Shown: piece after piece, positions 4,330 to 63,417 of the stretch
Numbering within the stretch: position 1 is the first letter of the stretch
How the letters are laid out: each line of letters begins with the position of its first letter
Source: Rhynchobatus australiae
Taxonomy: Eukaryota
DNA length: 64,000 nucleotides
Assembly (NCBI GenBank): GCA_034780895.1
Contig: JAUZTB010000057.1
Location: forward strand, 25,377,040 to 25,441,039
Reading direction: 5' to 3'
Position numbers and translations under genes: made by a program
Notes under the pieces: model-generated
Databases searched by the model: none
The model's input: only the letters and a program-made list of their open reading frames with translations
What the model was told of the DNA's origin: nothing

Positions 4330-4797
4330 TAATTCTTCACAGTGTAGGAAGAGAAGTGGGCAAAGTCTCTCTTCAGAGGGTGGTGGGTATATGGAAAGAG
4401 CTGCCAAAGATAGTAACACACGGGATGCTGGAGGGGTCTGGCAGGTCGGGCGGCGTGTGTGGTGGGAAATGGACAGTCATCTACAGTCCAGATGAAGGGT
4501 GTCGACCCGAAACGTTGGCTGTCCATTTCCCTCCGCGAGCGCTGCCTGGCCCACTGAGTTCCTCCAGCATCTTGTGTGTCACTCCAGATTCCAGCATCTG
4601 CAGTCTCTTGTGTCTGCCAAAGAAGGTAGTTGAGGCAGGTACAATAACAACATTTAGAAGACATTTGGATAAATACATGGAGAGGATATGTTTGGAGGGA
4701 GATGGGCCAAACACAGGCAAATGGGACTAGCTTAGGTCAGCATGGATGAGTTGGGCCAAAGGGCCTGTTTCTGTGCTGCGTTACTCTATGACTCCAT
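4330..4797 (+). mobile_element. CR1 LINE 3' end interrupted by a Penelope-derived element
   Basis: QRVVGIWKELP...KVVEAGTITTFRRHLDKYM plus tail GGGCCAAAGGGCCTGTTTCTGTGCTG...ACTCTATGACTC. Confidence 0.85.
4411..4613 (+). mobile_element. Fold-back Penelope-derived element with hammerhead-like core
   Basis: Inverted arms GATGCTGGAGG / CCTCCAGCATC; 10-bp TSD CTGCCAAAGA at 4401-4410 and 4614-4623. Confidence 0.75.
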
Positions 4798-4899
4798 AAA
4801 AATTCAAAAAGCTGCAAAGATGCAGCAAGTCAGGCAGCATCTGTAGAGAGAGAATGGAGTTTCAAATCAATTACTTTTCATTAGAAAAAAATTGGTTAT

Positions 4900-5155
4900 C
4901 CCTCATCACTACTTCAATATTACAACACTATGACCACGTTGATCACTTTGTACTACAATGGACTTTGCTTTTTTTTTGTTCTAATTGTTTCTTGTCAAAA
5001 TTGTGTATAATTTAGTTTTAATTTATGTTTTCCTGGTGAATACTGCTTATCGGATATTATGTGCCTGTGATGCTGCCGCAAGTAAGTTTTTCATTACACC
5101 TGTGCTTACGCGTAATTGTGCATATGACAATGAACTTGACATTGACTCTGACTTA
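4900..5155 (+). mobile_element. Rex1-type LINE 3' tail
   Basis: Similar to the tail at 46950-47175 (GATGCTGC.GCAAG.AAGTTTTTCAT...GTGCATATGACAAT). Confidence 0.65.
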
Positions 5156-6074
5156 TTATCACTTTGACTTATTATCTAACAGAACTGCCATATATAGAAC
5201 TTTATACTCCCTCATTCCCAACCAGCTACTGTACTCTACTTCTTTTGCCCTGCTGAAATAAAGCATAAAAACTTTTGCGATGATATGTTGTTGCAAGCAC
5301 ACATCATTTATTCACATTGATCAATGAGCAAATGAAAGATCTTGCGCAGATAAATCAAAATGCAGCAAATCTCTGCTGATGTGCCTGCACAGCATCGGCT
5401 GCATATGTCTGTAAGGATATGAGTATTGCTGAACCTCAGTAGATTTAACTACAATCCTTCCAGACAGCTCCTCTTCCCCCTACCCCAATGCTGTCTTTGC
5501 AATGCCTAAACTCATTGAGTCTGTGCAGCACAATGATCAATCCGAACAAATCTGAAACAAATGTTATTTTTGTCATGATGGTTGTGTACTTTAAATATTC
5601 TCTGCTTCCTGAATGTTTGCTCTGAATAGAAAAAAAGATCTGCCCATTTCTCCCTGTCTTGCCAAAACTGTTCAGTGCCCAGTTTCAACTGTGAATCATC
5701 ACATCACAGGCGAGATGTGTGCACAGTCTCTTGTGTATGTTTAGTAGAAGTGCAGTTCTGTTAGCAATTAGAATTGCACACATTTATATTCAGAAGAGTT
5801 TGCAATAAGTCTTGCCAGTGCCAAATCGTTTGCTTTACCCGTTTTGTACCATTCTCTGGAGAAACATTTTATTCCAGAGCACTTGCAGATCTCTCAGCAC
5901 ATACTCATCACTCCCATTTGTCCCAAAAACACAAATGGGAGAACATAATCCTACTTCTCCAAAAGGAAAAGCCTACAACCTTCTTCACACCACCAAATCT
6001 CACAATAATAAATGACCTTTATTACATTCACTAGAATAGTCCATGAAACTGACATCACTCAATATCAGTGCTTG

Positions 6075-6462
6075 ATGGTTGGCGCAGAGGATGTGGAGCG
6101 TTGGCAGAGAGTTATAGATAGGTTAAGTGAGTGGACAAGGATCTGGCAGATGGAGTACAATGTTGGTGAATGTGAGGTCATCCACTTTAGAAGGAAAAAT
6201 AGGAGATCAGATTACTATTTAAATAGTGAAAGACTGCAGCATGCAGTTGTGCAGAGGGACATGGGAGTGCTTGTGCATGAATCCCAAAAGGTTGGTTTGT
6301 AGGTGCAACAGGTTATCAAGAAGGTAAATGGAATGTTGGCCTTCATTGCTGGAGGGATTTAATTTAAGAGCAGGGAGGTTATGCTGCAACTGTACACGGT
6401 ACTGGTGAGGCTGCACCTGGAGTTCTGGTCTCCTTACTTGAGGAAACATATACTGGCTTTGG
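6075..6462 (+). mobile_element. CR1 LINE RT C-terminal fragment
   Basis: DRLSEWTRIWQMEYNVGECEVIHF...QRDMGVLVHES. Confidence 0.88.
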
Positions 6463-6799
6463 ACTCAAATGCTAAACTAAGTCCTAGTCACCTTCCTGGT
6501 ACTCTCCTGGAGTGCTCCCTCAACTACCAGTGCATAAAATGGATGACCTGGTGATTCACCTCTGGTATGCCTGCAACCCTCATTTACAAAAAGTCAGAGC
6601 CAAGTTGGCTTTACTGAAAACCAAAAACGCTGGGAAAACTCAGCGGGTCAGGCTTCATCTGTAGAGAAAGTGAGGTGAACTTGATGGCTCAGGTCATTGG
6701 AAATGGAAAATGTTACAGATGCAACCAGTTTTAAACAAACACAGACTGAGAAAGCAAGAACAAAAGAAAAGTCTGTGAAAGGTCAGAAAGAGCAAATAA

Positions 6800-7462
6800 T
6801 GGATGCACCCCCGGGTTCTGAAGGAGGTGGCTTTAGAGATTGCAGAGGCATTGGTGATAATTTTCCAGGAGTCAGCAGACTTCGGCATGGTTCCGGAGGA
6901 CTGGAGGGTCGCAAATGTAGTTCTGCTGTATAAGAAAGGCAGCATAAAGGAAATTATAGACCTATTAGTCTGACATCGGTGGAAGGAAAGTTATTGGAAT
7001 CGATCCTCAAGGATGAGGTTATGGAATAGCCAGAGGTGCAAGGCAAGATAGGTCCAAGCCAGCATGGTTTCCTGAAGGGAAGATCCTGCCTGACCAAACT
7101 ACTGGAGTTTTTTGAGGAAATCTCAGGTAGNNNNNNNNNNNNNNNNNNNNNNNNNNNNNNNNNNNNNNNNNNNNNNNNNNNNNNNNNNNNNNNNNNNNNN
7201 NNNNNNNNNNNNNNNNNNNNNNNNNNNNNNTAGCCAGAGGGTAGTGAAATTATGGAATTCTTTGCCACATACAGCTGTGGAGGCTCAATCATTGGGGGCG
7301 TTTAAGGGGGAGATAGATAGGTATCTAATAAGTCATGGTATCAAGGGATATGGGAATAAGGCCAGAATTTGGGGCTAGATAGGAATAGTTTTTAGTTTAG
7401 CTCATGGAGCAGGCTCGATGGGCAGAATGGACCACTTCTGCTCCTTTGTCTTGTGATCTTGT
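6800..7462 (+). mobile_element. CR1 LINE fragments (RT N-terminal part and 3' end, gap between)
   Basis: NYRPISLTSV.GKLLE, SQHGFLKGRSCLTKLLEFFE, QRVVKLWNSLP. Confidence 0.88.
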
Positions 7463-10050: not shown

Positions 10051-10605
10051 CAGTTAAACTCTGTTAATCCGGCACATTCAGGTCTTTGGGGGCCAGATTT
10101 TCTGGACTACTTAATGTTATCCCAATTAATACTCCAATACACTTTTAGGTCACTTATTTTGTAGCGGTAACACTATCATAATAAAATTTTCGTAAACCCA
10201 CTCAGTTTTAAGAGAACACAGGAAATATGGCACTAGTGTGTTTAAGGTAGTATGGAGGAACAGGGCACTGATAGGCTGAAGGAAGCTCAAGGAACGGGTT
10301 ATCGATGTGTTAAAGTGAGTGCAAGAAACAGGGCACTGGTGTGCTAAATAGAACACAAGAATGGGGCACCTGTGTGTTCAGGGGAACACGGAAACCAGGG
10401 CATCAGTGTGTTAAAGAGAACTCGAGAAACGGGATACTGGTGTGTTAAAGAGAACACAAGAAATGGGGTATCGGTGTTTTAAAGGGAGCATGGGAACCTG
10501 GGCACAGGTGTTTCAATGGGAACATGGGATCAACATCCGGTGAGCACAATGCTGAACAATTCCGATTTCCAACAATCGGATAGCAGGTTATTGGAATTTT
10601 CACTG
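10051..10605. mobile_element. Tigger/pogo-like non-autonomous DNA transposon (MITE)
   Basis: Imperfect terminal inverted repeats CAGTTAAACTCTGTTAATCCGG ... GCAGGTTATTGGAATTTTCACTG followed by TA. Confidence 0.6.
10210..10530. repeat. Minisatellite, ~33-35-bp unit, about 9 diverged copies
   Basis: Recurrent GGGCACTGGTGTGTTAAAGAGAACACAAGAAAT-like unit. Confidence 0.85.
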
Positions 10606-11850: not shown

Positions 11851-12639
11851 GGGAAACAGAACGGCCAAATCAACTTTAGAAGGTAGCTAGGAATTTCAAA
11901 TTTTAACAAATGTCTTTCCAACTTTAAGCTTCATTTCAGATTTTTCAATTCACACCGGAACGTTCGTCCATTCCACCACCATTATGATTGTCCAATCATT
12001 TCAGTATTGTGCATCTGGTGTGAGGCAATTCATCCACTTGAATTGGTTTTAATGAGTTAAATGATATCAATTTTACATTCACTAGATTAACAGGTTAAAC
12101 TGACCCATAATGTCAATGCTGATAAAATAGGTTAGCGCTCAGAGCTAGAGCATTGAACCCCTAGCGCCATTTCTGTCAAGCAAGGTGGCTCCAATTTTTA
12201 TTATTAAATTTGGAATTCCTGCCTTTCTCCAAATTCCTCAATAAACATATTTTCTGTCTATCCAGCTCCCTTTTAACCACTTGCTGTTATTCTGCATCTC
12301 AAGTGGTACTGCATTATCTTTATGGGATTCTTCAGCAATTCCAAGATCAAATCTCGTGCTTGCTATGACTACTTCTCACTGCTCTTATCACTCCTACTTT
12401 GTTACTATCACAACCATTTCACTCTTAAGATACCTACTGGGTGTAAAAATGACATAGATTTAGAAATGGAAAGTATGGAATTAGAACTGACTACCAAAAG
12501 CCAGAGGGAAGATCAGATGTAAAAAAATGAAGACAGTGAGCTGCAACAGCCCAAAATGAGGTGGTAAAAAAAACACCAAAGACTTGGCAAGTAAAAGCAA
12601 TTGAAGGGAAAAGGAAGGCAAACCAAAAGCAAAGTAGTG

Positions 12640-12704
12640 CAGTTGCTGGAAATCTGTAATAAAAACAAAAAATGCTGCAAATACTCAGCAAGTTATTATC
12701 TGTG

Positions 12705-12738
<34 letters not shown>

Positions 12739-12740: not shown

Positions 12741-14237
12741 GAGCTCTTCAGATTGTTGGATGAATTAGGGTGAGGATGAAGGCTCAACCCTTCCATGCTT
12801 CAGGCAAGGAAACTGAAACCACTGGTACCAAATCAGGGCAAATGGAAAGTATTTACAGAGGCCAACAGTCTGGAGACTTCAGGATTCAAAGCTGCAAGAA
12901 GCTGCAGGGATGGGATGGTTGTGAATGGATTAAGAATTTAAGACGAGTATCCCAATGCCTGATTTCACTGTGCTTAATCTTTTATGGCTAGTAACATATA
13001 AATGTTCTCTTTTACCCTTGATTTGCGTAAATCCAGCCCGTGCTCACTGCATACTGTAAATGCAACTCATAACCAAAACTGAACTTCAAGAAATCAAATC
13101 ACTAAATTGATTTTAGTATTCCTCAAGAGGGAGCTAACAAGTCGAGGACACATCACTCAGTTATTTCTTGATGCTTAATGCTCAGCCCCTTGTGCAAATC
13201 GCAGCAAGAATTTCCAAACTGGAGAAAGCTCAGCCTTACCACAACTAATTCAACAACATATTTTATAAATATCTGCAAACTGAAATGAAAAGGAATTAGG
13301 GGTAACAGTTACGAGACGAGATGAAAATCTTGTCAATCTTTCAGTGAGGATCTCAATTGACTGGCAGTTTTTCAGCTACAGTAACATTGCCTAGAATGGA
13401 GGGATAGGGGTAGGAGAAAGAGATGTATTTTACAAGCTCTGTTTACCTGCAGAGATATCTCTTTCCATATGGGTGCCTATGGATTCACATCCTATCAGTG
13501 TGACATGGAGAAAACACAAGGATATTTAGAAACAAACTACATAATTCATGAATACTCAAAACCAATAACCATTACCTATAAATTCAAAATGAAGTCTTCT
13601 AATTAATGGAAACTTACCCAGGCTTGGGCTGCCAAACAATTCCTGGAATGAACAATAAAATAAGCATTTGTGTTTGCACTGTTGCATTCTTATCTCGTGA
13701 TAGTTCTGCTTACCCCAAATCAGCTTTATTACTTTGCGATTCCTTGACATTCTTTCCCCCCTCCCCACCCCCCCACTCCAAAGAAAGAGGTGGAACTAAA
13801 CTACCGTTAAATGTTGAGCTTCTAAAATGAAGTGCAGTCAGTCAAGTTTAGGTAGGGAAGTAAAGTACTGTATCAAAATGTGGTTAAAATGCTAATTAGT
13901 TTGCCATTGAATTTGTTTCTGCAAAGACCAATAAGCAATTTGTCAATCTGTCTCATTAATTGATGAAATGTAAGAGCTATCACTGAAGGAGAAATATTTA
14001 AAGCCAGCCTTGGCAGCAGACTTATCCAGCTCTACGATCGCCCATGAGGTTTAGAAAGCTTTAGTTCTGGGCTTTAGGCATGATTGCCTGGAATTGGCCC
14101 TGTCTACACGTGGCAGTATACACATAAGAGAAACACCAACTGACTATCAAGTTTTTCAAAGCCAATCTGCTGACCCAGACTCAAATTAGGATGCAGAAAG
14201 CTTGCATTTTTTAAAATTATAGCAGGACAACTTGTGG

Positions 14238-14453
14238 AAAAACAGAAAATGCTGGAAAAACTCAGCAGGTCAGGTGGCACCTGGAAAAAGAAACAGTTAA
14301 CATTTCAGGCCTGGAACCTTTCATCAGATCTGTGAAAGAGAGAAAACAAGTTAGTTTTCGGTAGCAGAGAAGGTAGAGGAAGGGAAATAGGTGGAACAAA
14401 GTGAATATCTCTGATTGGGAGAGACTGCATGAAAATATTGGATTAAAAGTTGC
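14238..14453 (-). mobile_element. Penelope-derived element with hammerhead-like core (runs into gap)
   Basis: Minus strand CTGATGA A AGGTT CCA GGCCT GAAATGTT AAC at ~14296-14327. Confidence 0.65.
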
Positions 14454-14921: not shown

Positions 14922-15110
14922 GTCTACCTGCACTGCACTTCCTCTGTAGCTGTGACACTTTACTCTGTACTGTTATTGTTTTTACCTGTACTACCTCATT
15001 GCACTCAATGTAACTGCACTGTGTGATGAATTGACCTCAATGATTGGCATGCATGACCGTTTTCACGGTACCTTGGTACAAGTGACAATAATAAACCGAT
15101 ACCAATACCA
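14922..15110 (+). mobile_element. Dispersed LINE-type 3' tail ending AATAAACC(AATACC)n
   Basis: Same sequence recurs at 51323-51545(-), 55780-55975(+), 61125-61200(+) and 62262-62415(-). Confidence 0.75.
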
Positions 15111-17754
15111 AATTCTGGTTTCTGAGCAGATCAGAAAACAATTATCTGCCCTCTTTACAAAGCACAGCCACTTTTCTGATTTATGTGCCATATCGGTTCC
15201 ACATGTGTACTGTTACACTACCAATCTCCTCCCAAACTAGAGATTGATTTAGGGAGTGAGAATGATATGTTGATTTCAATAAATCTATTCTGCTGTAGTT
15301 CACAAGACTGATAGGAGTTCTGGGCCATGCTGTTTTGTAGGAGGCATCACTGAAGGTCGGATAATCAAAGCCAGCTCAATAGCAGTCTCTATAATCTGCT
15401 CTTCATGTGTCTTTTGGTGAGTAATGTCCGATTCTGCTGATGTTCAATACACATCTGGTGCCACCAGGTTCATATTCTGCATTCAACTTCTGGAATAAAC
15501 TCTTGAGGAAGCCCATTGGTCAATGCCAGAATCTGCAGAATGACAGACACAGCCAAGGTCGGTATAAGTGTAACTTGGCACTGCCTGCTTGTACCAGACT
15601 GACAACTGAACTGATATCAACCACACGAGTAGGCAAACAGGCTATTTTATAAGACTGTATCTTATATTGTGAATCAAAATGAGGATTCTTTGTGCACAGT
15701 AAGATTCCACAGAACCAGTGACATGGAATGAACTGATCAATTCAGCAGGGACATTCTGTTCTTATATCTTTCAGTAATCAGCCAAAGAGAATATAGAGGC
15801 TGCATCATCTTGGCTTTAGTGCCAGCTGAAAGGGAGTCAAGTTGATATACAGTATAAGATTAAAGGACTTTTTAATTATACTTTCACAGACATGGAATCA
15901 CTAACAACACCTGTATTTATTGACAATCCCCAACAGCCCTGTGGTATTATTGTCATATGTACTGAGATACAGTGAAAAGCATGCCATCCAGAGAGACCAT
16001 TCCATACACCTGTGGAGGAAAACAGGTGGTTGGTGTGAACGGCCATGGCACGGATGCTCTAGNNNNNNNNNNNNNNNNNNNNNNNNNNNNNNNNNNNNNN
16101 NNNNNNNNNNNNNNNNNNNNNNNNNNNNNNNNNNNNNNNNNNNNNNNNNNNNNNNNNNNNNNGTCAGCACTGTTAAGTCTGCCTTGCATAAAGTGTCTTG
16201 ATCACCTTCGTCAGTTCTTCCGAAAATTCGTCCTAAGCAGTTTGTCAGGTGTGAAGCAAATCAAAAGGTACCCATTAAAATGTGTCTGCTGTAAAAAATA
16301 CTGAGATATGTACATATAAATAAACCATAAAAAGAAAGAGAATGGGTTTTAGACAACCAGCTCATTCAAATAAAATCAGATATATACAAGTTTACAAGTT
16401 CTTTTTATTATCTACAATCTAGAACTTCAAGGTTTTCACTGAAGTTCTACTCAGCATTGCTTAGTAGGAAACAGCCTGACTTTTCTACTTGTATGTGATT
16501 AATAAAGTCAAAAAAAAAGGCAAAAAAAATCTTAACATCTTAGTGTCAACCATAATTAATTTGCATAAAGTGTTTAATTTACGGGGGTATTTCTTTTTCC
16601 GGTTTGCATAGGGAAAAGTAAATCTTAAATTGGATCAGAAGACAAGTTCTGCACCCTTGGAAATGTTGTGAATTGCCTTAGAAGTTGCAATGATTAAACA
16701 GATGTATGACAGTAATGGTAGAGGAAGTTATTAGGTCAAAAATTATCCACTGACAACACCAGCTCAGAAACCTGAACCCTGAAATACAAACTACAGCCCT
16801 GGGCTCACTGACAAAATCCCTAAACCTGAAACGTTAAGTCGTGCTTTCTCTCTGAGATGCTGACATACTTGCAGTGCATTTCTTGTATCTTGTGTTTATT
16901 ACAGTTGCTAACATTTACAGAGCTTGTTTTTGTCAAATGGCGAGCATGCAACTTCCAGCTGTGAATTAAATTGATTAAAGCCAGAAGAGGTGTGACTGAA
17001 GCTTGGATCGCCTGCTTTCCAGAGCATGAAAATCACTAAATCAATCAGCGCCTTTCGTTAGGAAGGAAGCAACTGGGTTCTCCACTAAGTGCAACCATAA
17101 TTAATATTAAAAATAGAATCTATGAATGCGCATTCCCTCATTAGAGGTGCTTGATGTGATCTACGACCATTTCACAGGTCTTCAAGGCTTCAAATATCAG
17201 TAGCTAAACTACTGATCAGGTAAGTTTCATCCTGCACCACACTTTAGCAAAGGATAATATTTCAAATCACTATTTACTCTTAAAATGTACTTGCCTCTGA
17301 GTTCAACCATCACTCTTCCTGTCACTGCCCCACACTACCATCCAGTTCCCAAATATACAGGATTGCCTGGATCCAGGAAAGCTCATCACATTGTTACCCG
17401 AATAGACACTGAACAAGGCTGCAATTACACTGCAATTACTGATTTGAGATTGATCAATGGGTTATGCTGCAGTCTGACCTCTATGTGACTGTTACAAAGG
17501 TACTCTCAATGGAGCTCTCTGTGAATGCTTCAGAGCACTGCTCTATACACGAGCAAATTATTTTTTTAAGCCTGGAATGACTGGTGTGAGCGCCTCTTGG
17601 TTCCAACATGAAAGGGTTTGTACACAGAATTTTGTAGCTTCACGTTGGATTAGAGGTAGATTGAAGCTGTTGCAATTGGTTAGGAGATGATCTCCGGCTT
17701 TGTCTTGTTTAATACCAAATTCGAGCCTTGTTCTAGAGTTCTACTCAAAACAAA

Positions 17755-18160
17755 AAACTGCATTCAGTGCAAATCTGAAATAAGGACAGAAAGTGCTTTA
17801 GATATTCAGCAAGTCAGATGGCATGTGTGGAAGGACAAATGGGGGTAACCAACAATCTGCTGGAGGAACACCGGGGTCAAGCAGCATCCGTGGGAGGAAA
17901 GAAATTGTCAACATTTTGGGTCAAAACCAGAATCCAGCAAACGATCCTCCAGAAGATCGTTTGCTGCTCCAGATTCCAGCTTCTGCAGTCTCTTGTATCT
18001 CCATTAACCTTTTGGGTTTACAACCTTCTGTCAGCACCTCATGGTTCTAACATCAAAGTTCAACATTAAGTTCTGACGAAAGGTCATCGACCGAGAAAGT
18101 TAACCCTGTTTCTTTCTCCACAGATGCTGTCTGACTTGAGCATCTCCAGTTTTTATTCTG
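17755..18160. mobile_element. Two nested fold-back Penelope-derived elements
   Basis: Outer arms 17755-17845 and 18010-18160 (CTGACGAAAGGTCATCGACC); inner element 17851-18004 from the second subfamily. Confidence 0.6.
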
Positions 18161-20161
18161 ATTGGTGTTTAAGTTATTGCCTGAATGACCTTGTTTTCCA
18201 ATGCGAGGAAAAGCCAAGTCTAAGCGCACACTGACATTCCCGGAGCGGACTTGAAAAAGATTCTTCAGGAACTGGAAAAATGCAAGTGTGACTAATTTTA
18301 GCTGGGATTACTCAAATTCCAAAACAGCTTTGAGGCCAGTTTGAGCTCATATTTCTGAAAGTATTGTTATTGTTAGGTGTAAATTTAGGCTGTAACAAGT
18401 CATGATGCATCCTGGGCAATGTGACAGCACCTCTCAAGTGCTGGCATTTCATGAGGACTCAGAGAAATACTTCTAGGTTGTCCAGAGTATCATAGGTACA
18501 GTGAAATAAAGCTGCAAGTTCCATCTGAAACCCTTATAGAAATGTACAGAATGATTGGTGTGTTTGCCAATTGTAAAGAACCACAGGTTTGGACTAAGTA
18601 CAAGGAAGCATCTCATTCTATGCACATGAAGTTCTCTTATAATCTAAGCTTCCAACAACATTCATAAAAAGCCCCCCAAAAAAACGCTGAAGAACGCTGT
18701 CTTCAATCATCATTGCAGCTCTATAATATAAGTGACTCAAGCACAGAGTTATGACTGAAAAATGATCCCTGATCAGAAATGAAAGGGTGGAACTGCTTTC
18801 AAAGTATGCTCAGGGCAGGAATCATTTAGCAGGCTGGAATCATGTATCATCACCCAAACACATTATTCACAAGAGGTTTGAAAACATGCCCCCTGCTACT
18901 CTACAGCAGAACCAAAATCATGGATAGGAAGAGATCGTCTGAATTAACTCAAGCTGTTATCTGCATAAGGTGCAAGCTCCATGAGCTGTCTCTACTCTGT
19001 AATTTACATAAATGTATAAAACAATACATTTTTCCTAGTTAAAAAGGTTGTGTAAACTGTCACTGGCTTAATGTCAGTTTTCCAAACTTTTGTTTGCACA
19101 CATGGGAAAAATATATCCACAATTTAAACACTTGTAATGTATTCAGTAAGTGAACATCCCATTAAAAAAAAGTTTTCTTAGGGTTTGACTTTAAGATATG
19201 GGATTTAGTTCAACATTAACATTTAGGATTGGTTCATCCAGATACGTAAATAGGGGAATCAAATGGAGAATGTTGGATTCGAGTTCAGGAAACATTGATA
19301 CACTGAGAGTATCAATGCACCCTCACTGAAAATTCCCCTGGAATGTCACAGCAGAGCAAAGGAAGCTTGGATTAAACCACCATATCTATTATACGATTCA
19401 GTATCTTACTTCGTCAGTAAGATAAACATCCTGTACTTATGATTTTACAGCTGTGCACAGGTTCTGGTTCAACTGAGTGCCAGGGTTCCCAAGGACATGG
19501 CTTTCAGGTCTGTGTGCAAGGATAAGCAGATGAGCTCCAGGTCTGCACTCACAGCCGAGCATATCATTTTCAGGCCTGTGTCCTGGGATGAGTGTGCAGC
19601 CACTGGTCATTGTGTTGGTTTGAGCACATGGGCTCCAGGTCTCCATGTGGTGCTGAATACAGAGACTCCAGATCTCCCTGCACATCTAAGTACCCTGATT
19701 CCTGGTATGATTTCATCACTAGGCTCTGCAAGTCCATTAGTTGCACATACTTTACTGTTGTGGCAAGTTCCCTGAATGCATGCAACTCTGAATTTGACCA
19801 TTTCTAATCTGAGAACAGGGGCTCTGAATCTGGTCGATCCAACTATATGTGGAGCCAGGATCTGTAAATATAACTGAATTATAGCTTCAGGCCATCATTT
19901 GGAAAAGCAACAGTTCTTACATCAACTGATCCAAGGACTAAAAAACAGATTTAACCCCACTTGATACTCTGTGAAGTCATACGAGATGCTATTATGGGCA
20001 AACAAGAATATTCATTTCAGAAATAAAACTCAAGAAAGTCATGTACATCGTCTAACAGAACGTGGGGCTTGATGAGAAATATGGAAGAGCTAGCAAAAAC
20101 AGTAAATATAAAGCAATTCATGCCTCCACTAAAATAATTTGTCATAAAGTACAGTCCTCTA

Positions 20162-25257: not shown

Positions 25258-26059
25258 CTAGAATAGAGTAACAGAATCTAGGTTATTCATAACTTTATCA
25301 ATAAAAACATTTGTGAGCGTCTATGCTCCTTCAACACTCTCGTCCTGTGCAATCCCCTATTTGCCCTACCTTTGGGAGTGTATCTCCAGCCATTAAGGAA
25401 GGATGTCTCCTATCTCTCTCTCCCCTCCTTCAAGACATTCTTTAGAGTTTAGACCACTGACAGAGTGTTTGTTGCTCCACCAAACATGGGTTCATAATCC
25501 ATTGTTTTCCCTACATCCCTGTGATGAGCCTTGGATATTTTTCTACTTTAAAGGTGGTATATGAATGGAATGCTGTTTGGTCAGGGTGAGCAGCCTCATC
25601 TTGTGACACTGACCAGTGGCAACAGCTTCCAAGGACAAAGCAGTTGTACAAAGTTACTGCCAGTAATTATTCTGGGAATGACTGCTAATTATTCTAATGC
25701 TCTGACATGGCAAATGGGGATCTATACTTTCATCTGGAAACCAGCAATCTCCAGAACTGATTTTATTGGAAGCATAAAATTTGGAACCAAAATGTAATCT
25801 GACAGCACATTGTAAGCCTTTTGCTTAGTTCAAATGGAGAAGTATTTCACAATTCATATGGCAAATCACATTCTGGAGGAGAGGAAGTTCCCCTGAAATG
25901 AATTATTTATTTGACTCGTCAAGAAAGGCCACTTAAACTTTGTCCCATATTGAAAACTCAGTCTCAAAAGGACCACCGGATCTCAGAAGATGGTAGATAG
26001 ATAGAATTGGTAAGTCGGCAGATACGCAAAACATTCCTTCTTTGACTGAGACATGGAAT

Positions 26060-28766: not shown

Positions 28767-28814
28767 GACCAACCAGCAGTGAACAGGTAAGACCAACCAG
28801 CAGTGAACAGGTAA
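28767..28814. repeat. Perfect 24-bp tandem duplication
   Basis: GACCAACCAGCAGTGAACAGGTAA x2. Confidence 0.9.
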
Positions 28815-46444: not shown

Positions 46445-47175
46445 CCAGAGAATGTGGTTCAGAGGTGGAGAGAGTCAGCAGCTTCAAATTTCTGGGCGTT
46501 AACATCATGGATCACCTGTCCTGGGCCCAGCACATAGATACAATCATGAAGAAGGCACGATAGCACCTCCACTTTCTTCGAAGCTCAAGGAGATTCGGCA
46601 TGTCACCATCTGCAGATGCGCCATTGAAAGTATCCTGACTGGTTGCATCACAGCCTGATAAGGCAATTCCAATGCACGAGAACAAAAGAGGCTGCAGAGA
46701 GTTGTGCACACAGCCAGTCCATCAGAGGCACAGCCCTCCCCATCACTGACAGCATCTACAGGAAGTGCTGCCTCAAGAAGGTGTCATCTATCATCAAGGA
46801 TCCCCACCATCCAGATCATGCCCTCTTCTCGCTGTTACTGTCAGGCAGGAGGTACAGAGGCGTGAAGTCCCACACCACCAGGTTCAGGAACAGCTACTTT
46901 CTTACGACCATCAGGTTCTTGGACCTACCAGCACAACCCTAACCCTACCACAGCAATGGAACACTACAGACCACCCCTTGCACTATCATGGACTTGTCAT
47001 CAATTATGTCTTTGTTTTTTGTTTCACACTGTGGTATAATTGTTTGCACAATTTATGTACAATTTGTATTCTCTATGTTGTCTGTACCTATCCCCTTGAT
47101 GCTGCTGCGAGCAAGTTTTTCATCACATCTGTATCTGACCATACTTGTGCATATGACAATAAACTCAACTTGATT
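46445..47175 (+). mobile_element. Rex1/Babar LINE 3' fragment
   Basis: VERVSSFKFLGVNI, IESILTGCITA, IIKDPHHPDHALFSLLLSGRRYR, TTRFRNSYF plus 3' tail. Confidence 0.88.
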
Positions 47176-50100
47176 TGGCTTGAATTGTGTGGGAGAGAGA
47201 AGGTGTTAGAGCAGCTATGAAGAGCATGGTGAAGAAAAAGATGGAAAGGAAGTGCATAAACAGGAGGAAAGTGGTTCTGGGGTTTGGCAGCTTGCTAAGC
47301 AAGTTATGGTATGTAACCCTTTCAGAAAAAGTGGCTATAGTGTCTGCAAACAGTGTGGAACTGATCCCACACGAGTTCTTGGGTCGTATGGGCAGATGTC
47401 ATGCGTTTGGGAGTGTGGTGCTGGGTGTGGCAACAATGGAAGTCAGATTCTGGGAATACTGATGGGACTGACAAGACCTTTGAACACTAGAGGGAATGAA
47501 CCAGACGATGGTAGATGTCACATTATGATAGCCGCAGATTCAGATGTCTGGATCCAAACCTCTTCACTCATTCTCCACCTTTAACATGCTCCTTAAAACC
47601 TAACAGTTCAATTAAAATTAAAGCCACATCCTGGTTTTTCATGCTGTGGCTAGGCACCAATTTTTGGCTAATTGCTCTCTATTTGGAACATTTTACTACT
47701 ACAATAAAATCTCTATATAAACTAAAGTTGTTGCTGTAAAGGTAGGGCTTGCTCTAATTAGGAAGCCAAAGGTCGCAGCATAGCTGATGCTTTGAGTTCA
47801 GTAAAATATAGTCCAATGGTGGCTACCTGTCTCCGGCAGAATAACACACAGGCCACCTAATGAGAACCAACAGTACTGTAAGCTGACCAGACAGGAGTTG
47901 GAGTTTTGAGCATGTGGAATTGGAGAGTGGTATTGAGCATAGAGCAGCAAAAGAACAAGAGTTTCTGGTAAGTTTGGATGAAGTTCACGTTGATGTAGGA
48001 ATAGCCTATGGAATGTTCCATGAAAAGTGCACTGGCAACTTGGAGGCATTTTCCAAGTTGACATGTAGTTCTATGCTATTGAAATATTGTTGAGGGACCA
48101 AGGTTGATTGAAGATAATAAGCTTTGGTCTGTGCATGACCAAGCCATGGTCATTAGTGATTCAACGATTCACCAGAAGTTAGGCAAGTGGAGGAAGGGTT
48201 GTTGAGACATCTGAAGAAACAAAAAAGGATAGGCCAACATCTGGGAGCTCTGTAAAAGAGACATCTGAGGACAGGAATTCCAGGGACTGAGACCAGAGCA
48301 AAGAGTCCTGGGGATCTGGGAACAGTAGATGCTGATCACAAGGTGTCGGGATACTTCAAAGCAGTGATCAATTCAGATAAGCTACCAAGGAGAAAAAAGG
48401 ACTGGGGCTGGTGGTGGGGTTGGAGGATGGTGTTGAGGCAAAAGGCTATTGAATTTAAAGTTCTCATAACAGTGCCTCTGAAAGATGGGTAGTTGATGGA
48501 AAACAGCAGTGGCATGTCACATGGGAAGAATACACAATCATAGGTTCATAGGTTAAGTAAATTAAATGCAGCTAAAAGAATAGTGGGTTAGAAATTCTAA
48601 AGCACATAGAAACACATTAAAATGACAGAAAGATACTCAAACCAGTTTCCTCTGGGGAGACGGAGGAGCAAATTTCCTCCGCAGATGAAATGCAGTCATA
48701 TGCCGAGGTGATGCAAATCCTAAGTCTCCTGAGCTCTGTGACTCTGTGTCTCTTGCGACTGTGCTAATTTCAGGAGCTGCATGAGAGGATCGAACATACA
48801 CATATGGTCTCCTATGGTGCTGGGAGCATGAAAAGTAGCCGTTTCAATGGGAACCATTGTGTACGGAAGTGGGCTTGAACTGAATGACCTTTCACGAGGA
48901 GCGGTGGGATATGCACAGAAGTGGGCACCCAGCGTCTTCCACTGATATTAAGACATCCTGATATTAGAGGTGACCACTTGGGAGAAATATTAGTGCGGTT
49001 GAAATACTTCCACCTAACCTCACCCAAAAATTAAACAGTAAAGCTTCACCTCAAATATCAGAGATGTCTGGTCAACTGGGGAAGATTCCATGTTGGTCAC
49101 CAGTGGAGAACTCCCTAACCGTGGTCAGTAAAGGTCTGTCCCTTTAGTTCTGCTTGAGCTTGCTATCATCCTTCCATTAAAGCCCGCTTTTCTAGACAAG
49201 GTCCATGCTGTTTTTACACTCCAATGGTGCACCAGTGATGCCAGTCACACATTGCACACTGATTAATGTCACTGCTGCAGAACCAGTGACTTCCATTTGT
49301 ACAGTAATCACACATACGGCAGCCAGGGATTTGAATTTTACTTTATGCGCTTGTGCACTGGTGGAAATGCTAATTGTATTTTGTGATCGATCTTGCATTT
49401 CCATTAAGTAGTGTAGAGCCTAAAAAGCAAGCACGATAAGATGGAATTTCGAGGCCATGAAGGTTAAGCGTTGTGAAGGAGTGCGGCAGAACAATGTTGG
49501 AAGAATAGTGTTATACTTTCAAGAAATACAACATGACAGCACATAGAAATGGATGGAAGAGAGCAAAATATGTATGAGAAAGATCCAGAAGCACAGTGAC
49601 ATTATAAACACTGTAATACATCTGAAGATGGCGGCATACAGAAACAGCCAAGTGCAGAAACAGTGACAAATTACAGTGTAAGAAAACACAGCATCACAGA
49701 CATTAACACCGTGACATAGCAAAACAGCACTTTAAACAATGATTCGTGGAAATATGGCAAAAATAAAAAAAGCAGCATGCAGAAAAAATAATATATAAAC
49801 TCAATAGGATAAACAATGACCTTAGAAACAGAGCAACATGTACATAAAGATGTATAAGAACAGTCTGCTTGCTTTTATCATTCATCTTTTTGTTACATCA
49901 GCTTGCTTTCCCTCTCCCTCGGGGTATGGATGAGATACTTCTGTCTCTCACAGTCTTATTTGGCTATAAGAGTGATAGTTCGATCTCCAGACTATTCAAT
50001 AACTGTCAGCACTGCTACGCTGGCAAGACACAGCAGGCAAAACGAACAGCTCTAACATAAAATCTTATTTAGCCAGCTGATTTTTTTTGCACAAGTGTTG

Positions 50101-52019: not shown

Positions 52020-53095
52020 TGTCCACCAATGTCTTATACAACTTCAACATAACATGCCAACTCCTGTACTCAATGCCCTGATTTATGAAGACCAATGTGC
52101 CAAAAGCTCTCTTTACGACCCTATCTACCTGCGATGTCACTTTCAAGGAATTATGGACCAGGTCCCTTTGTTCCACCACACACCTCAGTGCCCTACCATT
52201 CACTGTGCAGGTCTTACCCTGGTTTGTCCTCCCAAATTGCATCACCTCACACTCATCTGCATTAAATTCCATCTACCATTTTCCCATCTGGTCCAAATCA
52301 CTTTGCAAGCTTTGATAGCCTTCTTCACTGTCCACTATGCCCCCAATCTTGGTGTCATCTGCAAATTTGCTGATCCAGTTTACCACATTTAAATCACTAA
52401 CAACAACTAGATGACAAACAACAACAGACCCAGCATCAATCCCTGCAGTATATCACTAGTCACAGGCCTCCAATCAGAGAGACAACCATCTACTGTCAAT
52501 CTCTGGCTTCTCCCGCTAAGCCAACATTGAATCCAATTGACTACTTCATCCTTAATGCCAAGCGACTTAACCTTCCGGAGCAGCCTCCCATGGGGGACTT
52601 TGTCAAAGGCCTTGTTAAAGTCCTCGTAGACAACGTCCAGCACCTTCCCTTCATCAACATTCCTGGTAACCTCCCTCTATTAGATTGGTTAGACATGATC
52701 TGCCATGCACAAAGCCATGTTAACTATCCCTAATCAGGCTCTGTCTATCCAAATACTTATATATCCTGTCCCTCAGATTACCTTCCAATAATTTACCCAC
52801 AACTGATGTCAGGGTCTCCAGTCTATAATTTCCTGGCTTATTCTTAGAGCCTTTCTTAAACAATGGAACAACATGAGCTACCCTCCAGTCCTCCAGCTCC
52901 TCACCCGTGGCTAAGGATACTTTAAATATCTCTGCCAGGGCCCATGCAATTTCTGTACTAGCTTCCCACAAGGACCGAGGGGACACCTTGTCAGGCCCTG
53001 GGGATTTATCCCCCCTGATTCACCTCAAGACAGCAAGCTCGTCCTCTTCTGTAATCTGGATACGGTCCATGACCTCACTACTCTGTCTCCTCAGT
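52020..53095 (-). mobile_element. CR1/HER1 LINE RT fragment, disrupted
   Basis: PGPD...PR, EDWRVAHVVPLFKKG, PGNYR, DFNKAFDKVPH, FADDTK, MEFNADECEV. Confidence 0.9.
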
Positions 53096-53261
53096 TCTAC
53101 AGACGTTGTGCTGCACTGTTGCTCTTTATCTTTCATTGTTTTAAAAAGCTAGATACTTGAAACGGAAAGAGAAAATGTTAGAAATGCACAGATGAACTGC
53201 AGCTGAAACGAAGAGAAGGTCAACATTCAAGGTGAAAACCCAATGTAAAATGCTATTTTAC

Positions 53262-54955: not shown

Positions 54956-55779
54956 GGCTAATCCAAATGAGTTTCTGGTCAAGGTTGACCCCAGAATATT
55001 GATGATGGGGCACTTGGTGACAACGTCAAGGCTAGGTGGTTAGACTCTTTCTTGATAGTTACTGACTAGCACTACTGTGGTGAAAATGTTACTTGCCTCT
55101 TATCATCCCATGCCCAAATCTTGCCTTCTTCACATTAGGAGTCCAGAATTGTTTGCAGTACACCATTATGATGGAACATTACTCCTGATTTTTTTTTCAG
55201 GAAGCACAGTGTGGTTCAGCTGGCCTACAGTCCAGATTCATCTTCCAAACAACAGGTCAGACCCTGACCACACTTCCTGCATACTCAAGTGAACCCCTAA
55301 GTCTTTCAAAATATCCACATCTTTCAGAATTGCTTCCTTGTTTCTAGGCTTTAAGTGTAGTATTTGTTATCATTTCCATGTAAATGACTACCTCATGTGG
55401 CAAAAGTTCCCTGGAATAGTTTGGAAAGATGTGGTTGCATGCAAATTTCAAACTATGGTCATTTTTTACTTGCTGAGTTACAGATATCACTAAATAGTCA
55501 GTGTAGAGAAGACAGATTTGCCTAACTGCCCTCGTGCACAGGAGATGCACAGGTTCTAGACTAGGTAGGTGAGGGCAAAGAACTTTAGGATTCTACTTCA
55601 GGTGCCCCTCTTGAGCTTACCCTCCTCATCTCAAACATAAAGGCCTTTACAAACCCAATAGATATTCTCATTTTTCCACCTGTCATGGTGGTTTTCAAAT
55701 ATCATCAACAACCAAGAATAACAAGCAAAGATATGGTTAGAAAAAAATGCAGAAAAATGCAGATGGACTCTTGTTCTCA

Positions 55780-55975: not shown

Positions 55976-56199
55976 GCTCTAAGAAAAGATGGCCTAACCA
56001 GAAAAGAAACTAACATATGAAGCAGATGTTGCTACAAACATAAAATGAATAGCTCAAAAGGACCTTGACTTAATGATTTTCTTTCACGAAGAGTTCTTGA
56101 ACAGACCAGGTCCCACAGTTACAGTCTACTTTAGAAACAATGGGATGTCCTTCAGTCCAAATTCAGTGAAATTCATTTTCTCACAGCATACAAGGCCTT

Positions 56200-56493: not shown

Positions 56494-58507
56494 ATAAGTC
56501 AAGCCCATTTCAATGAGGCTTTCACTTGTTTGCCCCAGAACTGAACTCTGTCTTTTGTATTCCAACATTGCAAAGATCTGTGTTTATGTTCCAAAGGCTC
56601 CGATGTTCTGGGTTATGGAATACAAATATGTTTATTCTACAGNNNNNNNNNNNNNNNNNNNNNNNNNNNNNNNNNNNNNNNNNNNNNNNNNNNNNNNNNN
56701 NNNNNNNNNNNNNNNNNNNNNNNNNNNNNNNNNNNNNNNNNNTCCGATGTTCTGGGTTATGGAATACAAATATGTTTATTCTACAGTAAACCACATAGGT
56801 GGTGTATTACTTCAGTATGAAAACAGGAGCTTGTTCAGTGGGATATATGTGTGTGTAGCTGGGGAAAAGTTCTTTGAAGAAGTCTCAGCTGTGTATTGAT
56901 TTTGGCTAGGAATTTCCACCTTATTTCTGGTGTAACAATAGCATTAAGAGCCAGTTTGTGCTGTCCTTTTCAAAAAATGGCATACAAACTGAAGTTCCAC
57001 CAGAACTTCACTATATCAAAATTTCCTTGGAAAAATTTGACATTGGGGTGGAGATCCCCATTGTTCCTGGGAATGAGGAAGACAGTGTTGAATGGGTGGG
57101 GGAGCAGGAAGATGATAGGGTGGGGGAAGGAGACGGAGGTTTACAGGGAAACTTTGTCAGGTGGAAATGTCCCTGCTCTTCCTGTTCATGTCATAAATTT
57201 AGGTGCCTAATTCAGTACAACTGAGAGTATTGGAGTTTAAAAGCTATTTCTTTGTGATATTTAAAAGCTTTTCGTATTGAGCTTTGTACTAAACTTAACC
57301 AAAGTGCTCTCGCTCTCTCAACTGTTGTTCGTTTTTAGACTCTATCCACCCCACCTACTTCATAAGGCTGAAGCTACTGGAATGGCTCTCCAAATGGGTA
57401 TACCACTGCTCCTCATGATAAGTGAAATATAACAGCAGGAACAAGGCACATGGAGAGTGAGGCAAGGTTACTAGTTCTGGTTTGATATCTCCCTAGAGAT
57501 TTTATGATGAAGCATTTGATCACCTGGCACTCAAAGATCCGATGTGCTCATATGACTTAAATGACATGACATTCCATCTTAAGAAATTTGCCTACAATTT
57601 GCATTTGTTAGAGTACATGTAGCTGCATTTACCTCTGTTGAGTGTCTTATTGTCATAAAGCATCAAATAAAATGTTTTATAATATGAAAAAATAACAAAT
57701 TAGAAATTGAATAATAATTTAAAAAGAATGAAATGATTTAAAATATTTTTAAGTGCTGCTTGATGATTCTACAATATCAACAACAAAATGAAAAAAAAGC
57801 ACTGATGCATTAAAAAAATTGTCAGTCTATGTTTGTGTTGTCCTCTTCTCTGTTGTGCTCTCTCTCCCGGTTTGTGTCCTTCTCCTTCATTCCCCAGTTT
57901 CTCAGTGTTGCGCTTTCTGACTCAATCACACACACACCAACCACCCTCCTTCATCCTCCCAGTTTGTGCTATTCACTCTCTCTTCCTTAAGCAGCTGTCC
58001 CAGAATTTGAGTGTTTCTCGGTGATTTTCTTTGGTCCCAATACCATCATCCACAACCAGTAAAAAAGCCATGTATCCCAACTTCTGAGCTGGAGCAGCAG
58101 TAATTCTGGGATTGCACAGACACAAATCATACACATAAAAACCTCTCTTAAACTTCTCCCCAAGTGACCTTCAGCAGCAGTACCAGTCACCCACTCAAGT
58201 CAATTCTCGCTGATTTTATTGGCAGGATTGGGAACCTTAGACTGAGTTGCTTTGGCAGGAAACAGCATTTTATACTCAGATGATTATTAGTGGCCCAGCA
58301 TTCGGGCTTATTTTATGTTGGACTTTATGTCTCATCCTAGGCAAATGAGTTTATTAGGAAATTTAGGGCACATTATGGTCAGTGAACTAGGCATAGACAT
58401 GGGATCAAGCAAACTGCAAGCCTTAGTTAGCTCTTTATATGATCACCATAGGTTTAGAAACCATTACACCCATGTATCCCCTGCTGATCGTCAATAGTTA
58501 ACACTTT

Positions 58508-58730
58508 AGAGTCATAGAGTATACAGCACAGAAACAGGCCATTTGTCCTACCGCATTTATGCCAACCATTGCGTCCATCTATACTAATCCCACTTGACTG
58601 CATGAATTGCATATCCCTCTATGCCCTGCTTGTTGAAGTTCCTGTCCAGATACCTCTTACTTGTTTCTGTTCCTGTCTCCACCACATCTGGCAGTTCATT
58701 CCAGATACCAACCACCCTCTGTGTGAAAAA
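58508..58730 (-). mobile_element. CR1 LINE 3' end
   Basis: FFTQRVVGIWNELP plus tail. Confidence 0.85.
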
Positions 58731-58971
58731 GAGCAGTGTGCTTTGGCTAATTTCAGTTGCATTTTTCAAGGCGACTGTGGAATTTATGATCATAAATTGG
58801 ATATTTTGCTTCTTTTGTTTGAACAGATAACTACATTTTGTGGCTTCTCAACATGGACAATGTTGTCACCTGTAGCAATATTTTAATTTCACAGAAAGCC
58901 CTCCTTTCTCTCTGCTCCCACCCCTGAATTGCCCTCGAACAGAAGAGTATTTTAGAAATTATTCAACATAC

Positions 58972-59952: not shown

Positions 59953-62261
59953 ATGTCATTCTTGCTTTTTTGAAGAGGGCATGTAATGCCTAACTACTGA
60001 ATTATGGATAATGAATGCATATTGCCCTGGAATTTTGCCCACAATTACATTCTTTGCAGCAGGATCTACGTGGGCTGGGTGTGGGGTGATGAGAGTATTT
60101 TGAGATTCGGTGCATGGGAGGACAGCTTTTCCAAACATGCTGTGTTTTTTTTGTCCGTGGTAGATCAGGAAGAATTGACCTCATCACGTACGTGGAGAGA
60201 GTGAGAGATGTTCGATTACTTACAAGCTGGATAATGCCACCTACAGAGGGATGGGGTGTGATAGCTGACTTCATGCTGTGAAGGGGAAATCTGAGATCCC
60301 CATTGTTCCTGGGACGAGGAAGACAGTGTTGGACAGGTGGGGGAGCAGGAAGATGATAGGGTGGGGGAAGGATACGGAGGCTTACAGGGAAACTTTCTGT
60401 CAGGAGGAAATGTCCCTGCTCTTCCTGTTCCACAAGCAGGACTGTAAAGGGAATTATTTTGTCCATTTTCCACCCTCCTTTCACCCATCCTGTTTCCTGA
60501 AACCCAGATATTATGATTCAGCCAATAGGAGTTAAAAAAAAATGGAATGACTGTTATGATGAAGACAGGTAACTTCATTACACAACTTAAAAAATCTACC
60601 AGCCTCCTATGAATGAGATGATAGCATGCCCTTTGACTTTCTTATGTTAGAGCTGGAACTGGGTGGGTTCAAGACAGGTAGTTTGTAAGGATTTTCAAAA
60701 AATTTTTCTTTCTGTTTTATCCTAAATCCGCACTTCATTTTACACAATTTTGAGGGCAACTTAGGTTTTAATCACCAAGTACACCAAAATCAATAACTGT
60801 GGGCAAACTGAAAACTTAGCACGAGCGATTATTATTTTTTTGCATGAAATACAAGCAAGGGTGAAACTGGCTTCAACAATACTCTGCAACATGGTGGAGC
60901 AGCAGCTTCAATTAAGCTCCAAGTTAATTGAAAGGAAAATGAGTAATGGTGCAACACTAACTANNNNNNNNNNNNNNNNNNNNNNNNNNNNNNNNNNNNN
61001 NNNNNNNNNNNNNNNNNNNNNNNNNNNNNNNNNNNNNNNNNNNNNNNNNNNNNNNNNNNNNNNNNNNNNNNNNNNNNNNNNNNNNNNNNNNNNNNNNNNN
61101 NNNNNNNNNNNNNNNNNNNNNNNNTGATCTGTATGAACAGTATGCAAGACAAGTTTTTCACTGTACCTCAGTACAAGTGACAATAATAAACCAATTCCAA
61201 TTCTTCTCAAGCACTTCCTGCTTGTCTATTACCTCCAGCAGAGTATCCACCACTTCTGATTGGGATCGGGATTGATGGTTTCATGTCCCTTTCCCCACCA
61301 TTAATCAATTTGATTTTCCAGCAACAAAATGACCTGATGTACATTTCCTATTGTCCCTTATCAGTGGAATCTCAATCACTTTTCACAGTGGTGGGCACAT
61401 TTACCCCCACCCCAAGCTGGTAATAGAAAATGATGAATAATCAAGGCTCCACTGGGACAAGGAGCACACTAATCAGTTGCCCATTTCCATCACTTTTCTT
61501 ACTAGCTGATTCTTTTCAATCTCAGTGAAGGATTTGAAAAGAAAATATTCATGAGGAGACCAATTTCCTCCAGTACACTGGAGATCATTATTCAATTCCT
61601 TTCTTCAATTGCTCCCTACTGTAATGTCTGAGGAGTTTGTTGATTAGTTATAAAAAAATACAAGAAGTTGGACAATGGGAATGGGAGTTTATTTATACTG
61701 TCCACCTGATTGAATTTGGTGATCTCAACAAATTCTGCATTTAATCTAATCACCTAAGATTTAATTGTAGATCTGCAACTAGAAATTAATCCACAAAAGC
61801 TGGCAATGCTTTGTAGAAAATCAGCTTAACCTGGTGCAGAACAATATTATGCCCATTTCTGGCTGCCTTAATGCCCACCTGAAAATTTCACTCCAGACCT
61901 CTTGGCAGGGTTTCCAACCTCCCAAGCCACATTATTTTTGAGCAGAAAATTCCCCCAAATGATGTTAGTACTGATGCATCACACAAATAAAATCTCCAGT
62001 GAGACTGTCAATCTTACCTCTGAAAAATTACTGTTCTTATTTACTCACCAAACAACCCTGTTTTCCCTCCTGAGCTACTTAAAGGGCCAACACGCAAACT
62101 TTATGCTCATTGAGACTTTTGATGTTCTACATCTCAAATAAAGGCTAACACATTTTCCTTAACTTCTTAGTTCACGGAGGTCAAGATCACAGTCAGTCTC
62201 TTCCATGCCTCACAATCACTGCATGCTGCTCCAACTGATCTCTGACGTAGCACAGAGTTTT

Positions 62262-62415
62262 GGTATTGGTATATTATTGTCACTTGTACTGAGGTATTGC
62301 ATACCGATCTTGTATTGCACATTGCAAACTTGTATTGCATACCGATCATACAGGTCAATTCATTACATAGTGCAGTTACATTGAGTTAGTACAGAGTGCA
62401 TTGAGGGTGCACAGG
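62262..62415 (-). mobile_element. LINE-type 3' tail (same family as 14922-15110)
   Basis: Reverse-complement match with local internal duplications. Confidence 0.7.
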
Positions 62416-63027
62416 TACATAGAATTTAAGTTTAAAAGTGTAGAATGATTATAGTGAGGGTAATGAGTAGATCTGTAGAGAGCAGCTTGCAACGAGTCCC
62501 CACGCTCCGGTTTGCCGCTCACGCTACACGATTAAGATCATCTGAATTCCACACTCAAGAAGAAGAAACTTCATCCATTTATCTTTCAACCTAAAGCAGC
62601 AGGCAGAGGGAGAACAGGCGCTCACCTACATCATAAGCTTCCCCAAGTGTCAGACATTCATTGACAATGCTCACATCCTTTGAGATTTCCCGAGTAACTG
62701 CGCACTATGGCTGCCTGACTATAGTCAGTCCCGTGTGCTACCCAGCCCTCCACCCACTCCACACAAAGAACCACCTAGTCCAGGTCCCTCTCCTATCCCT
62801 CATTCTAGCCCCTGTTCATTCAGTCGCAACTCACCCTCTGGTTGATGGGCTGGCAGTGTGTCTCTTTAAAAGCTGGCTGCAAAGGATGCATGTGCTGGGC
62901 CACAAGCTTAAACAGCGAGAACCTGCGGCACGTCAATAGGGAATGCCGCACAGAGACCGATATTGTCAGCGCAGCATTTCACAGGCAAACCCAACAACAT
63001 CATTCTGTCAGCCTCACAACTGAAGTT

Positions 63028-63250
63028 GTAAATCAAAAATGCTGGAAATCTGAAATAAAAACAAAAAGTGCTGGAAACACTCAGCAAGTTATGCAGCATC
63101 TGTGAAAAGAGGTACAAAGTCAATGTTTCAGGTCAAAGACCCTTCATCAGTTCTGACCACAGAGTCTTCAACCTGAAATGTTAACTCTGTTTCTCTTTCC
63201 ACAGATATTGCCTGACTTGCTGAGTTTCTCCAGCATTTTCTATTTCTATT
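63028..63250. mobile_element. Fold-back Penelope-derived element with hammerhead-like core
   Basis: Arms invert around ~63151; TSD TCACAA(C/T)TGAAGTT at 63014-63027 and 63251-63264. Confidence 0.8.
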
Positions 63251-63417
63251 TCACAATTGAAGTTCTCAGTCTTTATATAAGTTTCACAAACAACACTGAG
63301 GTGACTCACACCAAAATAAAATGCATGGAACAACTTCTAAGCCCTATCTTTTAGACTCCCTTTCTCCCAGATCCTTTCAATCCTCAATGCCATAGAGCTC
63401 AATAGATTTGAACAAAC

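Follow-up and report, generated by a model that had tools for sequence, protein, structure and literature searches.

Organization of the locus

We analysed 64,000 nucleotides of Rhynchobatus australiae (assembly GCA_034780895.1, contig JAUZTB010000057.1, positions 25,377,040 to 25,441,039 of the forward strand), referred to below as the window, which carry a family of short fold-back elements. Their inverted arms bear remnants of a hammerhead ribozyme and resemble the pseudo-long terminal repeats (pLTRs) of Penelope-like elements (PLEs). The window contains 17 gaps (2,557 N) and 61,443 called bases, and its CpG observed/expected ratio is 0.24. The 3' part of TTC28 occupies 23606-64000 on the minus strand, in seven coding matches from 64000 to 23606; a CHAT domain is present, and the final coding match is a 554-codon exon. 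The top matches of its 559-residue frame (23606-25282, minus strand) were from Narcine bancroftii (90%), Scyliorhinus (87%), and Leucoraja (85%), and the window is, from its sequence, elasmobranch DNA. Three of the four main fold-back units (E2, E3, and E4) are located inside TTC28 introns, E2 being in the last one, and E1, like the copies at 4.8-18 kb, is situated past the stop codon.

Blastn linked the arms of E1, E2, E3, and E4 and the partial copies into one repeat family (for example, E1 against E2, E=4e-14; E4 against 12644-12711, E=7e-18). An nhmmer profile built from 13 arms gave 16 matches at E<1e-4, covering 1,444 of the 61,443 called bases; the 13 seed arms were all among the 16, and the independent matches were those at 4796, 6614, and 16819. 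When the same profile was run on the reversed window as a control, no match was found below E=3.6. A sequence-only reading of this DNA had described the units as two inverted arms, which was borne out at all four main loci, where the arms are head to head. It had also counted at least four complete insertions; all four indeed have inverted arms, but E2 and E3 are not known to be complete because gaps of 442 N and 123 N hide their lengths and junctions. Where gap-free, the fold-back units are about 200-400 bp long.

E1 is bounded by an exact 10-bp target-site duplication (TSD; 4401-4410 and 4614-4623) and consists of a short, tail-less inverted pLTR arm (4411-4479, minus strand) followed by a long arm (4480-4613, plus strand) with a hammerhead remnant (C3 at 4489, U4 mutated), a pyrimidine tract, a segment resembling the start of an open reading frame (ORF), and a tail. 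E2 has a candidate TSD (26854-26863, partner 27494-27503), a tailed arm (26861-26965, minus strand), the 442-N assembly gap (26966-27407), which hides its junction and its 5' hammerhead core, and a short arm (27408-27493, plus strand) that retains helix II and GAAACGTT and is 91% like the other. E3 lies between 37102-37114 and 37957-37969 (13-bp TSD, one mismatch). Its short inverted arm (37115-37215, minus strand), in which the hammerhead is decayed, abuts the 123-N gap (37216-37338); beyond the gap come a CT-rich interior (37339-37816, plus strand), repetitive and far rarer than the arms, and a long arm (37817-37956, plus strand) with a hammerhead remnant (C3 at 37822) and a tail. E4 lies between 63014-63027 and 63251-63264 (14-bp TSD, one mismatch); its tailed arm (63028-63150, minus strand) has the best-preserved hammerhead, with C3 at 63150 and a mutation at position 16.2, and in its short arm (63149-63250, plus strand) the catalytic core is destroyed.

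Partial copies had been noticed near 6625, 12640, 14240, and 16805, and arm matches were found there: solo arms at 6614-6682 (minus strand, E=5e-9, non-seed), with the hammerhead largely gone, at 12625-12717 (minus strand, by blastn and the profile), with a tail and an unrecognisable hammerhead region, and at 16819-16902 (plus strand, E=6.5e-5, non-seed), degraded; and an arm at 14229-14453 (minus strand) with a near-intact minimal hammerhead (C3 at 14327), the CT-rich upstream part of which runs into an N gap. A solo arm fragment at 4796-4854 (minus strand, E=2e-10, non-seed) was absent from that list. What had been taken for a partial copy near 17755 is actually a fifth, full fold-back of the AGTT subfamily (17750-18165, boundaries set by eye), in which the tailed minus arm is split by a second, nested fold-back (17850-18003) of the CAGTC type, nearest to E3. 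The arms of the outer unit are about 40 nt apart, and its plus arm keeps the hammerhead (C3 at 18073). Neither member of this pair has a convincing TSD, a possible 5-bp one being all that was seen for the nested unit. At the junction of the latter, a perfect 12-bp hairpin (17933-17964) resembles a second local fold-back. The copy placed near 40780 is a weak match only (40768-40803, minus strand, E=0.25), with GAAACGTT and the helix II side. Another weak arm remnant (53165-53241, minus strand, E=0.046) lies about 20 nt inside the intron that follows a TTC28 exon.

Target-site duplications

TSDs were compared with a null set of 400 random boundary pairs. None of these pairs equalled the TSDs of E1 (10/10 bp), E3, or E4, while the E2 candidate (7 bp exact, or 10 bp with one mismatch) was equalled by 19 of the 400 and is marginal. 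The variable TSDs proposed earlier (7-14 bp) are supported, with significance for three of the four insertions. E1 sits within another repeat, a paralogue of which (58505-58740) contains the site once, without an insert.

Units that are short, lack an ORF, have inverted arms, and are very abundant could be class II miniature inverted-repeat transposable elements (MITEs) or foldback DNA transposons, with the arms as terminal inverted repeats. However, the significant TSDs vary in length (10, 13, and 14 bp) rather than being fixed as for a DNA transposon, and the termini are asymmetric, with a one-sided tail in four of four units; both features argue against a DNA MITE. Solo arms, the one-sided interior, the hammerhead layout, and the acceptor-ATG arrangement described below also speak against this origin, which we consider very improbable.

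Anatomy of the arms

Each unit is bounded on the outside by the 3' side of the repeat, at the left and at the right alike. A pyrimidine tract lies some 30 nt beyond the hammerhead in the arms; AG follows it in 8 of 14 and ATG, opening a short frame, in 9 of 14. These would correspond to the end of a 5'-UTR intron and to the ORF start, both of which are expected within the pLTR of an endonuclease-positive PLE; no splicing and no downstream ORF were observed. Measured from the ATG position, the arms end at +43/+75 in E1, +42/+87 in E2, +46/+80 in E3, and +46/+72 in E4. The tail is on one arm only in all four TSD-bounded units, the ends differing by 32, 45, 34, and 26 nt, respectively. Where visible, the junction differs from one window copy to the next, although it is always near the hammerhead. 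The short arm of E1 has its start no more than 1 nt from the predicted cleavage site, and the long arm starts immediately ahead of stem I; in E4, the tailed arm starts at C3 and the short one with stem I, the two overlapping by 2-3 nt. About 480 nt of extra upstream sequence is found in E3, and the 14327 copy likewise extends upstream, as in 5'-truncated copies. The E3 interior probably derives from a 3'UTR-like upstream part of the parent element.

The hammerhead motif

The family has the layout of a minimal type I hammerhead, as judged from its letters. The motif CTGAYGA-A-stem-loop-GAAACGTY, which the copies had been said to carry, was exact in 0 of 15 window stretches, but it did emerge as the family consensus from contigs of four public runs (X1, X7, X14, and X23) placed on 26200-38200. 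In the window, the core reads CAGATGA in the right arm of E1, CTGATGC in E3, GAAACATT in the left arm of E4, and GAAATGTT in the 14327 copy; several of these changes are of the kind that CpG decay would be expected to produce. At the loose ends of contigs beyond the E2 left arm, the majority letters were GAAACGTC and then GACTG in X1, X7, and one X23 row, with a CpG-decayed form in X14; ahead of the right arm they were CAGTC-CTGAAG in X1, X7, and X14. These letters restore an intact 3' core, matching the published metazoan PLE consensus (PMC4209133 Fig. S3). The family shares with the published minimal hammerhead the succession CUGANGAH, helix II, and GAAA-C-G-U-H (PMC4209133); it differs from the published set in that no cartilaginous fish is among the rows examined (PMC4209133 Fig. 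S3, Table S1) and that the window copies are all mutated.

In eight copies, a small sample, 47 of the 64 cells of helices I and II were paired in register, against 14-28 of 64 when slid; because the consensus supplied the register, the test leans in favour of pairing. The two proposed subfamilies, with stem I CAGTC/GACTG or AGTT/AACT, were recovered and differ by compensatory pairs (G-C versus A-U at 10.1-11.1; C-G versus U-A at 2.1-1.1). A search of the window with Rfam up to E=5 gave no hammerhead; the Rfam hammerhead models describe canonical forms, and this null result therefore carries little weight. Folded whole, E1 and E4 formed long hairpins (z -8.8 and -13.4), in which the predicted pairing probability of stem I was 0.0. 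The fold-back is thus predicted to sequester stem I and to hold the hammerhead inactive.

The units had also been called retrozyme-like. Non-LTR retrozymes, in which hammerhead-excised circular RNAs are reverse-transcribed into tandem copies, are same-strand tandem repeats (PMC7229834; 10.64898/2026.07.22.740005), with canonical hammerheads in the first of these reports. They are similarly short, non-coding, PLE-related, and equipped with a type I hammerhead, and they have been reported as derivatives of PLE pLTRs, including one chondrichthyan case (10.64898/2026.07.22.740005). In contrast, the arms described here are inverted, and their hammerheads are minimal and non-tandem. Within a unit the two hammerheads face opposite strands; hammerheads on the same strand come from separate units, the closest such pair being 1,253 bp apart, and no tandem array in the window holds the motif. 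The retrozyme reading fails because same-strand tandem hammerheads are missing and stem I would, by prediction, be sequestered within the fold-back; we regard it as the least probable of all origins considered.

Contigs from public runs

The records placed from the four runs numbered 46,413, 67,890, 26,455, and 40,832, with the depth concentrated on the arms; the arm family is a very abundant elasmobranch repeat. X1 is possibly the window's own source and is not independent, and contig depth is not copy number. In X1, the mean depth was 7,305 in bin 37428-37828 (E3 interior) and 50,808 in bin 37829-38200, compared with about 4-18 in most unique bins. Upstream of the hammerhead most contigs continued into CT-rich sequence, with median loose ends of 186 nt in X1 and 255 nt in X7. 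That the E3 interior is rarer than the arms and that contigs run on upstream is as expected for 5' truncation. In X7, contigs linked unique flanking sequence to each of the two E2 arms and to the left arm of E3; these E2 and E3 insertions are therefore shared with the X7 organism. Among the 15 joints listed of 1,407, none represented an empty site for E2 or E3 in relatives, and none of the listed pieces bridged the E2 and E3 gaps. No RNA data set was listed as containing the stretch 62000-64000.

The contigs also bear on the possibility that the units are unit-length non-autonomous PLE derivatives, a few fold-back masters being transcribed and re-mobilised whole by PLE protein acting in trans. 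Two same-strand joints between the E2 arms stood at a depth of 133, against a unique depth of about 10-14: 26935 to 27438 in X1 (side 57) and 26949 to 27408 in X7 (side 24, at C3). Whichever strand of a fold-back is considered, its terminus would be a pLTR 3' end; rotifer pLTRs suffice in trans (PMC3846280), and non-autonomous elements are known in Chlamys (PMC8557442). On the other hand, no junction is common to two window copies, E3 and the 14327 copy have extra upstream sequence, depth does not give copy number, joint sides below 30 letters are flagged as unreliable, and recurrent microhomology joining could yield the same junction independently. We consider it unlikely that whole-unit mobilisation accounts for the family.

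Origin of the units

The units are probably heavily 5'-truncated insertions left by autonomous, endonuclease-positive PLEs, with the pattern of inverted pLTR plus tail. The proposal of inverted pLTRs of the PLE type that carry a minimal type I hammerhead is supported by the layout, the head-to-head arms, and the tail asymmetry, and the associated idea of a retrotransposed, RNA-based origin is also supported. Insertions of endonuclease-positive PLEs have an inverted 5'-truncated pLTR, a tail of 30-40 bp at one end, an ORF start within the pLTR, and TSDs of 8-10 bp (PMC3846280, PMC8557442, PMC8969392). Like those of Penelope/Poseidon and Neptune, the units studied here have head-to-head inverted pLTRs, a tail at one end, a variable TSD of about 10 bp, an ORF-start-like frame and a hammerhead in the pLTR, and apparent 5' truncation. 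Unlike complex PLE insertions, they are little more than two pLTR ends, contain no visible ORF, and cannot be assigned to a clade. Pairs of minimal hammerheads on opposite strands, 100-700 bp apart, were described in 2014 for Schistosoma, together with one such pair in a Cotesia bracovirus PLE (PMC4209133), and PLEs are reported to be expanded in the whale shark (10.1101/443036). The family is most likely a further case of the known pattern of inverted pLTR plus tail, not a new kind of mobile RNA. We found no literature on fold-back hammerhead elements in sharks or rays, in a search that did not cover most subscription journals, Repbase, or Dfam, so that absence from print is not shown.

A close parallel is the Poseidon element of Anolis carolinensis (PAc; Frangieh et al. 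2024, PMC11167929), whose protein, a predicted dimer, cuts and extends both strands in vitro and whose two internal reverse transcriptase (RT) starts delimit the tail. The arms share with PAc two fixed 3' end points with a tail between them and a hammerhead in the pLTR. In PAc, however, the ORF begins at stem II and RT at about +111-118; in the arms, the ATG comes some 30 nt after the hammerhead, preceded by an acceptor-like tract, and the ends are at +42-46 and +72-87 from this ATG.

Several observations weigh against a truncated-PLE origin. The Anolis ORF start at stem II lies upstream of the ATG position in the arms (PMC11167929). The upstream regions of the 6625 copy, the 14327 copy, and the E3 interior gave no significant alignment, 113, 258, and 418 of 500 shuffles being equally good, and both junctions of E2 and of E3 are hidden by gaps. 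Among the 15 joints listed of 1,407, some fold-back joints were at about 10 times the unique depth in X1 and X7, and secondary amplification of some units is therefore conceivable; most fold-back joints have short sides, and those below 30 letters were flagged as unreliable. No GIY-YIG domain was found with Pfam in 248 of the 333 stop-free frames (at least 62 residues), and the single Pfam RT match (52410-52676) adjoins no arm. An arm-peptide profile searched against 1.84 billion proteins gave five matches, none with an RT or nuclease domain. Two word searches for a protein link between the arms and RT/GIY-YIG gave nothing, and pattern scans of metagenome and viral contigs gave 0 matches.

Absence of an RT/GIY-YIG ORF is to be expected in truncated copies, and the window contains no full-length copy, which in an endonuclease-positive PLE would have direct or partial-tandem pLTRs around it. 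PLE membership rests on anatomy because no such ORF could be linked to the arms; presumably such arm ends flank GIY-YIG ORFs in elasmobranch assemblies. The supplement of PMC8557442 contained 0 matches for the arm peptide, the DNA motifs, or Callorhinchus. The peptide of the arm frame is present in gene models of Scyliorhinus torazame and, twice, of Heterodontus francisci (proteins P0122 and P0124); the acceptor-ATG frame in these shark models represents exonisation or a gene-prediction error. The RT fragments at 52410-52676 (minus strand) and about 6830-7130 are 64% alike, LINE-like, which we take to mean CR1/L2, and not beside intact arms.

Another conceivable source is a SINE-like element with a hammerhead, or some other retroposon, mobilised by a non-PLE enzyme and inverted by LINE-type twin priming. 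In its favour, the arms have no demonstrated link to a PLE ORF, and the window has many fragments of what we take to be the CR1/L2 type. The arms, however, lack a poly(A) or simple-repeat 3' end, the 3' side of one and the same repeat lies outermost on both flanks, and the two fixed end points fit the PLE tail signature, so we give this alternative very little credence.

Proposed mechanism

If the units are truncated PLE insertions, their formation can be outlined by analogy with Anolis Poseidon. The PLE protein would nick the two target strands with a stagger of 7-14 bp that would determine the variable TSD, and each nick would prime reverse transcription, which would begin at two internal sites a short way within the ORF start. 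With two start sites, one arm would be tailed and the other tail-less. Both cDNAs would end early, mostly near the hammerhead, and would be joined head to head via short microhomology. Within the truncated-PLE reading we slightly favour such two-ended priming over self-priming of the cDNA; self-priming on the antisense template is the published alternative (PMC3846280), and the two are not separable from the present data.

We infer that the hammerhead is a passenger of the parent pLTR. The Anolis Poseidon hammerhead cleaved only with added protein and was dispensable for insertion in vitro (PMC11167929), and RNA-seq failed to show hammerhead cleavage in vivo in Anolis. The fold-back copies are likely dead on arrival because their hammerhead is decayed and predicted to be held inactive by the fold-back. 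More tentatively, and with appreciably less confidence than the truncation itself, the fold-backs may be a fossil record of PLE integration, in which reverse transcription from two internal sites ended at RNA ends set by the hammerhead, some junctions being later amplified as MITE-like non-autonomous retroelements. The arm starts bear on this idea, that of the short arm of E1 being at most 1 nt from the predicted scissile bond and the others at C3 or stem I. If it is true, each elasmobranch run, with its tens of thousands of matching contigs, could provide junction statistics to test hammerhead cleavage in vivo. The large junction data set of this family would serve two open questions, the formation of PLE inverted pLTRs and the in vivo role of the hammerhead. 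For annotation, this abundant MITE-looking elasmobranch repeat would be better classed as PLE-end debris with minimal hammerheads. In introns, the fold-backs would contribute long double-stranded RNA hairpins (z -9 to -13) and, on either strand, acceptor-like sites.

Other features of the window

A different dispersed repeat forms inverted pairs about 1 kb apart at 15060-15978 and 61164-62296, with further copies near 4940-5150 and 46937-47181. Two other repeats, in the 26335 region and in bin 31413-31813, had a raised contig depth in all four runs. A degenerate tandem array with a 34-bp unit (about six copies) is present at 10288-10512. Finally, a weak match to U2 snRNA (55329-55499, plus strand, 21.5 bits, E=3.9) is possibly a decayed pseudogene.

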